This document shows, piece by piece, positions 14,459 to 16,724 of a DNA stretch of 55,947 nt. Both the position numbers and the translations under genes were made by a program. How positions within the stretch are numbered: position 1 is the first letter of the stretch; every line of letters starts with the position of its first letter. Source of the stretch: Candidatus Bathyarchaeia archaeon (GTDB lineage Archaea; Thermoproteota; Bathyarchaeia; Bathyarchaeales; Bathycorpusculaceae); NCBI GenBank assembly GCA_037481775.1, contig JBBFKZ010000007.1, positions 1-55,947 on the forward strand, read 5' to 3'. The notes below the pieces were generated by a model, which saw only the letters and a program-made list of their open reading frames with translations, searched no databases and was not told the origin of the DNA.

Positions 14459-15328
14459 GTGTTCCCCAGAGTTCCCGACCAGCACAAGATAGATAAACCC
14501 TTGGTTCCAAACGGCTTAGGCGTAATTTACGTTCTATTCACAACAGTCTACCTCTTCCTAGGCTACTTTCTGGGCATCGCCGAATCGGGGAATGGGGTTT
14601 CTGTGCCGTTAACTTTGGCTGTTTGCATTCTATTTGGCGGCTTCATGGGGCTGCTGGACGACTGGATGGATCTGAAATGGCGGTACAAGGCGTTTATGCC
14701 TCTAATCGCCGCGTTGCCTTTGGTGTACTTGGCGCGCGAGTACGCTTTACGCACCGCCATTTCGTTGCCCATAATAGGCATAATAGACTTTGGAGAGGCA
14801 TACTATTTTCTAGTAATTCCATTACTAGTTATGGTGGTTACTAACACCGTGAACATGCTTGGCGGCTTGAACGGTTTAGAAACTATCTGCCCTGCGATAG
14901 TCCTAATCGGGTTAATGGCGCTGTCTCCGCTTTCACACCTTCTTCTTATGCTTGGGCCGCTGATTCTCTGGCTTGCTCTTGCGGCTTTTAACTTCAAGGG
15001 CAAGATTTTCGTAGGCAACAGCGGCTCATTCGCCATTGGCATGACAATAGCCTCGTATGCAGTAATCGCCGATCTGAAATCAAGTTTGCTGATCTCGATT
15101 ATACCCTACGTTTTCAACTCGTCTTTGATATTGTTGAGTGTTTTCCTTTTTGGAAAAAAGGCAGCGGTCACACTTGACGGTAACAAGCTTGTTTCCACAC
15201 ACAGGCGCAGTTTAATTACGCTTATTACTTATCAGCGGCCGATGACTGAACGCCAAGTAGTAATCGCGGTGTCTCTTCTGATCGCAGCTTTTGTAGCTAT
15301 CGCTGTTCTCACCGAGTTGTTGTGGTGA
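14459..15328 (+). CDS. Polyprenol-phosphate GlcNAc-1-phosphate transferase (AglH/GPT/MraY family)
   Basis: DxHK..KP.VP.G, GLLDD, NTVNMLGGLNGLE, IFVGNSG; directly after aglB. Confidence 0.85.
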   Translation: MFPRVPDQHKIDKPLVPNGLGVIYVLFTTVYLFLGYFLGIAESGNGVSVPLTLAVCILFGGFMGLLDDWMDLKWRYKAFMPLIAALPLVYLAREYALRTAISLPIIGIIDFGEAYYFLVIPLLVMVVTNTVNMLGGLNGLETICPAIVLIGLMALSPLSHLLLMLGPLILWLALAAFNFKGKIFVGNSGSFAIGMTIASYAVIADLKSSLLISIIPYVFNSSLILLSVFLFGKKAAVTLDGNKLVSTHRRSLITLITYQRPMTERQVVIAVSLLIAAFVAIAVLTELLW

Positions 15329-15401
15329 TTGTCGCTTAGTTTTGGCAATCCTCATCAGATGTTGCATGGGCTAATGCGAATTTTGCCTTTTATAATTCAG
15401 C

Positions 15402-15412
15402 AAGTTTTAATA
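15402..15412 (+). promoter_or_regulatory. Putative BRE/TATA promoter of queT
   Basis: AAGTTTTAATA about 28-38 nt upstream of the GC-rich structured leader. Confidence 0.5.
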
Positions 15413-15440
15413 GGCAATGTTTGGTTGTGCATAAACTAAT

Positions 15441-15496
15441 GGGCGGGTAGGTGGGCCTCCACCCGTTCCGCCATATAAACCCCGGCGTAGGAGGTG
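15441..15496 (+). ncRNA. Candidate cis-regulatory RNA (riboswitch-like) in the queT 5' UTR
   Basis: GC-rich leader; anti-SD CCTCC (15456-60) complementary to SD GGAGG (15490-94); two mutually exclusive folds. Confidence 0.5.
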
Positions 15497-15500
15497 TAAA

Positions 15501-16049
15501 ATGGTGAAGATTGATAGTCGAGATTTGACAGGCACCGCGGTCTTTGCGGCATTGTACGTGGTAATCAATATTGTGCAAACTGTTACGGTGGGTAACCCTA
15601 CAATTTATGGGCCTATACAACTGCGCTTAGCGGACTTCATGATTGCGCTGGCAGCATTATTCGGCTGGCCGCTAATTGGCGGAGTCACGATAGGTTGCTT
15701 CTTAACTAACGCTTACTACTTCCTCGGCGCACCGGACGTGCTTCTCGGGCCTATAGCTAACTTTGTCGCCGCTTGGCTCGTAATGTTCTTGAGAAAGCGT
15801 CGATTGCTGGCATGTGTTGTCGGCGCTTTGCCCATCGGCTTAATCGTTGGCGGTTATCTCTGGATTTTCTTTCCTCCACCAGAAGTCTTGGGCAGTTTAC
15901 CTGCGTGGGCAGGCATGATAATTAGCATCACCGTCAGTAGCTTAATTGCAGTAGCGGTCATAGGATACTTGATGCTGACGATGTTAAGTCGACCTAACAT
16001 TATCAAACCGTTGAAAGCGCGTGGGCTAAAAGTTGTCTCGGAAAGGTGA
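15501..16049 (+). CDS. queT: QueT-family (COG4708) 7-deazaguanine precursor transporter S component
   Basis: AALYVV...P.IYGPIQLRLAD...GVTIGCFLTN...DVLLG pattern; strong SD GGAGGTG. Confidence 0.85.
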   Translation: MVKIDSRDLTGTAVFAALYVVINIVQTVTVGNPTIYGPIQLRLADFMIALAALFGWPLIGGVTIGCFLTNAYYFLGAPDVLLGPIANFVAAWLVMFLRKRRLLACVVGALPIGLIVGGYLWIFFPPPEVLGSLPAWAGMIISITVSSLIAVAVIGYLMLTMLSRPNIIKPLKARGLKVVSER

Positions 16050-16220
16050 TACGTGGATTCTCTGTTCAAATTCCGCTTTTCTTTTTCGTTTACTTGCAGA
16101 AGGCTTCGTTGCTTATTGCCAAAGTAGGTCTTGCTATGATGCTGTTTTTAACTTGCACTTTGCAGTAATTAGTATAATTTATAACTGTCTGTTGCGCCTA
16201 CTCTCGTAGGAGGTTTATTA

Positions 16221-16724
16221 ATGGCTAAAACTGAAGAGAATTTGAAACATGCTTTTGCAGGTGAATCTCAGGCTAACAGGCGCTATTTAGCTTTCGCTAA
16301 AAAGGCTGAAGAAGAGGGATACATACAGGTTGCTAAACTCTTTAAGGCCGCTGCAGAAGCGGAAACAATTCACGCACTGAACCATCTGCGGATAACTGGG
16401 CAGGTTAAATCAACACCAGAGAACTTGGAGGCTGCGGTTTCAGGAGAAACCTTCGAATTCAAAGAAATGTACCCCGAGTATATCGCTACTGCAAAACAGG
16501 AAGGCAACAAGCAGGCAGCGTGGAGCTTTAACGTGGCTAATCAAGTAGAGCAAGTGCATGCCAAGCTGTTTGCAAATGCAATTGACGCACTGAAGAGTAA
16601 AAAGCCGCTTGATCAAGTGGACTATTATGTGTGCAGCGTATGCGGCAACACTGTTGAAGGTTCACCGCCAGATGTGTGTCCAATCTGTGGCGCGCCGAAA
16701 GAAAAATTCTTTAAACCCACATAA
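16221..16724 (+). CDS. rbr: Rubrerythrin
   Basis: AFAGESQANRRY, EAETIHA, E..EMYP, EQVH; C-terminal CSVCG...CPICG. Confidence 0.94.
   Translation: MAKTEENLKHAFAGESQANRRYLAFAKKAEEEGYIQVAKLFKAAAEAETIHALNHLRITGQVKSTPENLEAAVSGETFEFKEMYPEYIATAKQEGNKQAAWSFNVANQVEQVHAKLFANAIDALKSKKPLDQVDYYVCSVCGNTVEGSPPDVCPICGAPKEKFFKPT

Follow-up and report, generated by a model that had tools for sequence, protein, structure and literature searches.

The window, a stretch of 55,947 nucleotides from a Bathyarchaeia archaeon, carries a queT gene with a family-4 glycosyltransferase gene and an STT3/AglB gene as its upstream neighbours and a rubrerythrin gene downstream (Table 1). The initial annotation had proposed a structured leader in front of queT, and the PF06177 match of the encoded protein bears out this choice of downstream gene. 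The leader, 15440-15503, reads UGGGCGGGUAGGUGGGCCUCCACCCGUUCCGCCAUAUAAACCCCGGCGUAGGAGGUGUAAAAUG, and all the strings from which two alternative folds had been built are present in it, namely GGGCGGGU (15441-48), ACCCGUUC (15461-68), CCUCC (15456-60), GGAGG (15490-94), CGCC (15469-72) and GGCG (15484-87) for the first fold, and GGCGG (15442-46), CCGCC (15468-72), GGUGG (15450-54) and CCACC (15459-63) for the second. The rubrerythrin gene (ATG at 16221) has GUAGGAGGU 7 nt before its start (window 16205-16223). The window organism seems to be a general user of strong Shine–Dalgarno (SD) sequences, and with a strong SD at the rubrerythrin gene as well, masking of the SD is a plausible control point.

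Table 1. Features of the queT leader and its gene, in window positions
Feature	Positions	Strand	Description
Putative archaeal promoter	15402..15412	+	BRE-like A-rich AAG, then TATA-like TTTTAATA (15405-15412)
Putative transcription start region	15436..15438	+	placed from the TATA position and the usual archaeal spacing; a few nt before P1
P1 5' strand GGCGG	15442..15446	+	predicted to pair with 15468-15472; covariation
Upper S1 5' strand	15447..15454	+	G15447/U15448 in tandem G.U with U15466/G15465; A15449 mismatched with C15464; GGUGG 15450-15454
Hairpin loop and anti-SD GCCUCC	15455..15460	+	complementary to 15490-15495; C15459 and C15460 also in the top two hairpin pairs
Upper S1 3' strand	15459..15467	+	CCACC 15459-63, C15464, G15465, U15466, bulged U15467
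P1 3' strand CCGCC	15468..15472	+	predicted to pair with 15442-46; covariation
Linker L3	15473..15489	+	AUAUAAA 15473-79; CCCC then GG 15480-85; CGUA 15486-89
SD GGAGG(U), S2 3' strand	15490..15495	+	6 nt before ATG 15501
queT coding sequence	15501..16049	+	ATG 15501; 182 aa; PF06177, E 3.2e-23

When the QueT protein alone was used as the query on 61 related genomes, 50 had a match, and an element of about 65 nt stood directly 5' of the best QueT match in 28 of the 30 loci returned. In these loci, selected by protein, the leaders were near-identical across QueT identities of 48-92%, even at 48-55%; judged from these alignments, conservation of the leader is far above that of the protein. The two remaining loci, L024 and L027, have the element at a greater distance upstream, which in L024 is ahead of the first gene of a queT-queC-queT operon; the sequence features of L027 are as in L024. 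One locus (L025, G022:C2:90916-91453) had a split queT, with two matches, one of them with a TAG, and a degraded leader (GUGAACCUCCAACC, CCGUUUCGCC); here the gene seems to be degenerating along with its switch.

A pattern scan of one genome per prokaryote species returned at least 120 stretches, and among the 120 matches listed 118 were true instances of the motif and two (L082, L111) were set aside as chance matches in high-GC DNA. Record titles among the matches listed were nearly all of Bathyarchaeia or Bathyarchaeota, with a few of Methanomethylicota or 'Nitrososphaerota'; one of these records, L045 (CP122380.1), is titled as a complete genome. Motif and QueT also occurred together on contigs labelled Promethearchaeati (LC30), Acidiferrales bacterium and Patescibacteria bacterium (L093, L105, L106), labels that could stem from mis-binning or lateral transfer. 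A covariance model found exactly one copy in the window's genome (15439-15503, 77 bits) and, in the sample of 151 genomes drawn from the class, detected the motif in 94 (73 of the 95 of high quality); in the sample drawn from the phylum it did so in 31 of 151, with mostly one copy per genome in both samples. Among Bathyarchaeia genomes, two copies each were present in G250, G257 and G283 and three in G306, with a QueT-like gene behind each copy fetched from these genomes (L196/L219, L217/L218, L201/L205, L213/L215/L216). Low-scoring model matches of 17-23 bits (L179, L180, L187-L191), which by eye from the translations lie in or beside ORFs resembling ribosomal proteins or ATPases, were rejected as false positives.

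The genes behind the motif belong to one pathway. A QueT-like gene was detected by BLASTP behind 138 of the first 150 instances, including L135, where a queC-like gene follows queT. In the 12 exceptions the motif is followed by queC and queT (L073), by queE-like and queC-like genes (L048, L096), by a queE-like gene and a gene for a glutamine-amidotransferase-QueC fusion, GAT-queC (L092, an arrangement also seen in L238, L302 and L333), by divergent QueT (L066 and L101 by Pfam, L064 by its similarity to L101) or by a membrane protein without Pfam match and then queC (L061); the remainder are contig ends (L041, L071) and the two chance matches. The QueE-like and some of the QueC-like proteins score below the curated NCBIfam cut-offs, yet those families are their best matches. 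The GAT-QueC proteins combine GATase and QueC domains and follow a queE-like radical-SAM gene (L092:5243-6691, L238:9969-11372, L333:4553-6013); fusions of this kind have been connected with the formation of archaeosine in Crenarchaeota.

A second pattern scan, of metagenome contigs and with anchors that leave P1 free, gave at least 120 instances, and among the 120 listed the motif preceded QueT-like genes in 90, a queE-like gene and then GAT-QueC in three, and a contig end in two, while about 25 had the beginning of a 234-aa membrane protein in common; three of these were checked and had no Pfam match. Members of this membrane family, 234-277 aa long, lie directly behind the motif at L230:3860-4561 (-), L289:3422-4120 (-), L280:1501-2133 (+) and L061:5727-6557 (-); they had no match in Pfam or NCBIfam and no BLASTP similarity to QueT was detected. 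The L230 and L061 proteins are homologous to each other (32% identity, E 7e-31), and a protein atlas places the family near ECF S-component clusters (0.93), a placement that serves only as a lead; the family is a candidate new preQ0 importer. The association with 7-deazaguanine genes that had been proposed for the window's leader extends over queT, queC, queE-like genes and GAT-queC, and the predicted regulon is coherent, with queT in the large majority.

Comparison of the leaders points to an irregular hairpin, S1, with P1 at its base. Among the 93 distinct metagenome rows from the matches listed, 99.6% of P1 cells were paired, against 45-78% in slid controls, and both sides changed in four of the five pairs (GC61/CG32; AU1; UA1 and UG1; GC83, GU4, UA3, AU1), counts to which related sequences contribute many of the covarying cells. 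The strand pairs among the metagenome matches listed were GGCGG/CCGCC (70), GGCGC/GCGCC (35), GGCGC/GCGCU (3), UGCGG/CCGCA (2), UGCGC/GCGCA (2), GGUGG/CCACC (1) and GACGG/CCGUC (1), with GGUGG/CCGCC, AGCGG/CCGCU and GGCGG/CCGCU as further singles and three mismatched or shifted; the GCGC/GCGC variant is concentrated in one soil lineage, so that cell counts overstate the independent events. The same variant also stands 5' of QueT-like genes in L215, L216 and L218.

Above P1, S1 consists of a bulged U, a G.U and a U.G, a conserved purine/C mismatch and then three to five pairs. In 95 distinct diverse leaders (alignment A5), a 13-pair model of S1 was 90.9% paired, against 43-61% when slid, with pair 14-34 occurring as UA65, GC7, CG3 and UG2, pair 9-40 as GU90 and GC4, and pair 12-36 as a mostly conserved A.C mismatch. 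The CCGUU of the upper 3' strand is near-invariant, and the sole variation seen in it is a U-to-C change opposite G9, giving a G-C pair, in L204, L209, L211, L212 and L214 (the first four are the A5 rows behind the GC count of four, and L214 lies outside A5), and a U-to-A change in L178, where the G.U of S1 becomes G.A. Both P1 and the irregular upper helix of the predicted S1 are supported by covariation.

The second helix, S2, is the pseudoknot between loop anti-SD and SD that the initial annotation had foreseen, and the comparison bears it out. Its columns were 97.4% paired, against 48-62% when slid, and none of 500 shuffles equalled this value; at least five contiguous base pairs were present in 196 of 199 distinct rows, pooled from alignments A1 and A5 with some loci counted twice, and 67 helix types were seen. 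The flanks covary (ACCUCC/GGAGGU, UCCUCC/GGAGGA, GUCUCCC/GGGAGGC, UUACCUCC/GGAGGUAA), and some cores are unlike an SD altogether (UUCCGAC/GUCGGAA, UGCUCCGU/ACGGAGCG, GCCCCCU/AGGGGGC, UGUCUC/GAGACA), indicating that the loop is more than a copied 16S rRNA tail. Loops matched their own tails with 6.24, against 5.68 +/- 0.06 for permuted tails, and loop-tail energy was -12.88 kcal/mol for own and -11.47 +/- 0.13 kcal/mol for permuted tails.

In the main type, to which the window belongs, two C's are common to the hairpin top and to S2. In subtype B (GUGGUU..., tail CCCCAAAA; L177, L178, L186, L209-L212, L214) the anti-SD lies entirely in the loop, so that competition between hairpin and pseudoknot is not universal; the tail of subtype C is CCCCG-GUUGGGAGG. 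Two families belonging to another class (L173-L176; leaders at L173:243-304, L175:1501-1569) retain the pseudoknot (UUCCG/CGGAA, CCACC/GGUGG), with its 3' strand some 90-130 nt ahead of the conserved core of QueT. Either these proteins have N-terminal extensions or the leaders have a different expression platform, and SD masking may not be the output there.

Over the whole fold, L1 is variable, L2 is short or absent, and L3 is long, with an A-rich part, CCCC and a short variable piece. The AAA and CCC of L3 are invariant in alignments A1 and A5, with an A-rich part of 6-14 nt, and subtypes B and C have AAAA or a single G in place of the GG after CCCC. For the invariant CCCC no partner in pairing came out of a mutual-information scan, which returned only subtype-linked correlations, such as that of column 13 with column 65. 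Several candidate contacts were discarded: pairing of CCCC(GG) with G7-G9 is ruled out by G8-to-C variants that keep CCCC, a GUU/AAC pairing by U34-to-C variants that fit G9-C34, and the CCCC-SD pairing seen in the minimum-free-energy (MFE) fold is not conserved; a K-turn or L7Ae site was dropped by eye, the opposite strand being without GA. The unpaired GUG, CCGUU, AAA and CCCC do not vary between families with only about 30% identity in QueT, and belong to a core that is so largely invariant as to lie beyond covariation testing and parts of which were forced by the patterns or models used to gather several of the alignments. Invariant unpaired nucleotides of this kind are typical of ligand pockets, and a pocket is predicted here.

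A TATA-like box had been noted upstream of the leader, and it falls inside a signal that recurs at a fixed distance from the motif. When 157 distinct upstream sequences were anchored on the motif and numbered from the G of GCGG (15443), an A-rich peak spanned -41 to -37 and a T/A-rich peak -36 to -29. This promoter-like signal, with its constant spacing (-41 to -29), would put the motif at the transcript's 5' end, and 15402-12 would be the promoter in the window. Archaeal TATA-to-start spacing is usually about 26 nt, from which we infer a start of transcription just ahead of P1.

Folding energy speaks less clearly. The MFE of the window leader was -27.4 kcal/mol (z = -1.19), and folding was at least as good in 24 of 200 shuffles; on thermodynamics alone this leader is not above chance. 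The nearest-neighbour MFE fold differs from the conserved fold and is itself non-conserved. Evaluated energies were -17.9 kcal/mol for P1 plus P2 and -9.0 kcal/mol for the S2 duplex, and as an arbiter between folds these values and the MFE gave no decision. The support for the leader element is comparative, not thermodynamic.

The 7-deazaguanine pathway of the host is consistent with a need for uptake. The window's genome, 96.7% complete, has a single TGT+DUF5591 (ArcTGT) gene (G000 contig C5:70240-71700). The search for QueC gave only N-terminal PP-loop fragments of at most 27.5 bits and no true QueC, a QueE-like query gave only a weak radical-SAM match (32.8 bits), and neither PTPS/QueD nor QueF was found in this genome. 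With ArcTGT present and QueC, QueD and QueF not found, the archaeon would depend on imported preQ0. The simplest reading of this gene content, in which a gene not found is not equated with a gene absent, is that QueT brings in the preQ0 used for archaeosine and that the archaeon is unable to produce preQ1; the organism has the look of an obligate salvager of preQ0.

Riboswitches are rare in Archaea. The archaeal TPP and fluoride riboswitches are known systems that share with the queT leader the principle of cis-regulation in an mRNA leader, and SAM-II, an H-type pseudoknot, shares the compact fold in which a ligand-stabilised helix includes the ribosome-binding site; the sequences, ligands and regulons of all three are unrelated to the motif. 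The generic traits of a riboswitch seen here are a structured leader supported by covariation and its occurrence before non-homologous genes of one pathway. A cmscan against Rfam 15 with permissive filters and E up to 10 gave no preQ1 match in window 15300-15600 or in the motif of 10 diverse loci, and no Rfam 15 family of any kind matched the motif, the sole match in 15300-15600 being a chance-level DapZ further upstream. Neither the element nor any archaeal preQ0 or preQ1 riboswitch was found described in a search of the main texts of openly accessible papers. A 2024 review of preQ1 riboswitches describes three classes, all bacterial, and the word 'archaea' is absent from it (PMC11625349).

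Among these classes, the closest in gene context is preQ1-II (RF01054; the COG4708/queT motif of Bacillota), which likewise lies in the queT 5' UTR with the SD wholly paired to a hairpin loop, a translational design with which the archaeal leader shares the expected OFF switch for a 7-deazaguanine (PMC11625349). The initial annotation had likened the leader to this class. However, preQ1-II is an HLout pseudoknot with four pairing regions, one of them the P4 hairpin that separates P2 from the SD strand (PMC11625349), whereas the archaeal leader is a plain H-type pseudoknot with no covariance-model match, no conserved P4 and other conserved nucleotides; its hosts are Bathyarchaeia and other archaeal lineages instead of Bacillota only, and its likely ligand is preQ0 instead of preQ1. 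The closest in fold is preQ1-I (RF00522), especially type III with its full occlusion of the SD, which is also of H-type, has an A-rich linker after the P1 3' strand and the SD in its second helix, and also controls que genes and transporters (PMC11625349). The A-rich linker is found in all aligned archaeal leaders, where it follows P1 and ends in the invariant AAA. Nevertheless, the archaeal element has roughly twice the length, with a distance from P1 to the SD of 54 nt here and about 34 nt in preQ1-I, S1 comprises about 12 bp and includes a conserved internal loop, the invariant CCCC is extra, and a near-invariant GUU (in a few cases GCU or GAU) stands before the P1 3' strand in place of the UC or AC of preQ1-I, whose C reads the ligand (PMC11625349). 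With preQ1-III (RF02680) the leader has in common the ligand family and an anti-SD/SD helix as its platform, but preQ1-III is about 100 nt long with five pairing regions (P1-P5), its HLout aptamer standing apart from the SD helix (PMC11625349), whereas the archaeal element has about 65 nt, S1 and S2 only, and no covariance-model match. The leader falls outside all three preQ1 classes by their defining features and probably represents a new class of riboswitch; 'possibly a new class', as the initial annotation had put it, is the best reading.

The motif is a real, conserved structured leader; its conservation, the helices P1, S1 and S2 and the link to its genes are what the comparisons show. 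We consider it likely that the leader, at about 15437-15500, comprises the aptamer and expression platform of an undescribed class of 7-deazaguanine riboswitch, built as an H-type pseudoknot and most likely sensing preQ0. In the proposed mechanism, the S1 hairpin would carry the anti-SD (15455-60) in its loop and S2 would join it to the SD (15490-95), while L3, A-rich and then with the invariant CCCC, would run along the minor groove of S1 and form the ligand pocket together with the invariant nucleotides of the internal loop. At high intracellular preQ0 the ligand would lock S2, the SD would be buried and translation of the importer would fall, and in other genomes the same repression could act on queC, queE and GAT-queC operons. 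At low preQ0 the hairpin top would re-form (G15453-C15460, G15454-C15459) and sequester part of the anti-SD, leaving the SD free; P1 is probably common to both states and not exchanged between them. Ligand identity, the direction of the switch and the role of the linker are what we infer from these comparisons, with preQ0 as the ligand and a translational OFF switch as the most likely assignment, and the OFF direction is suggested by analogy with translational preQ1 switches (PMC11625349).

A structured leader that works without any ligand, as a constitutive attenuator, an mRNA-stability element or an RNA thermometer tuning queT, would suit the unremarkable folding energy, and pairing of SD and anti-SD requires no ligand. 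Simple attenuators or thermometers would not, however, keep about 25 unpaired nucleotides invariant throughout a phylum, nor recur before the non-homologous but linked queT, queC, queE-like and GAT-queC genes and the second membrane family, and we think this explanation improbable. Much the same low probability attaches to a protein-binding operator, where a regulator or a pathway enzyme such as ArcTGT would bind the hairpin and control que translation: the gene association and the conserved single-stranded nucleotides fit it equally well, but no regulator gene accompanies the motif in the loci inspected, the element is self-contained in very diverse genomes, and an H-type pseudoknot with an A-rich linker ending in the SD is the architecture of small-molecule riboswitches (PMC11625349).

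Somewhat less improbable, though still unlikely, is the same fold with another ligand, be it preQ1, guanine or another purine, 7-carboxy-7-deazaguanine or archaeosine base. Known preQ1 aptamers bind preQ1, preQ0 and guanine in that order of affinity (PMC11625349), and control of queE together with queC would suit the sensing of an intermediate; yet preQ1 should not be made in the window's archaeon, where QueF was not found, guanine would leave the exclusive link to que genes unexplained, and preQ0 is what the controlled queC makes and what the only TGT-family enzyme found takes as its substrate. The exact two-fold model of the initial annotation retains the least credit and is very improbable. 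It posited an OFF state with a stem of 15441-48 and 15461-68 (GGGCGGGU/ACCCGUUC), the pseudoknot and a small hairpin (15469-72/15484-87), and an ON state of GGCGG/CCGCC plus GGUGG/CCACC; its stem does occur in the computed MFE fold, and its ON fold is the hairpin supported by covariation, whose helices are the ones that covary or are kept. The OFF stem, by contrast, is 87% paired without covariation, 128 of 140 sequences cannot form its outer pair, and G-C to C-G swaps in P1 (L215, L216, L218 and 32 of 93 metagenome rows among the matches listed) break it and keep P1. The small hairpin CGCC/GGCG competes with P1, has no covariation, and one of its pairs fails in 71 of 136 sequences.

Returning to the preQ0 riboswitch as the preferred reading, we favour, more guardedly but still as the probable case, the broader proposition that the motif is a fourth structural class for 7-deazaguanines, the first in Archaea, selective for preQ0, present in most sampled Bathyarchaeia as well as in other classes of the phylum, and with a regulon that flags a hitherto unrecognised importer family without Pfam match. 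The element is short (about 70 nt), so that it could be tested in vitro straight away. If true, a widespread archaeal class would extend the RNA sensing of 7-deazaguanines to the archaeosine pathway, and a new fold for a well-studied ligand family would allow the recognition of one compound by different RNAs to be compared. The motif would also serve as a genomic marker for the genes of preQ0 salvage and synthesis in uncultured Bathyarchaeia, including the candidate transporter family, and would provide direct evidence of SD-dependent, RNA-regulated translation initiation in these archaea.
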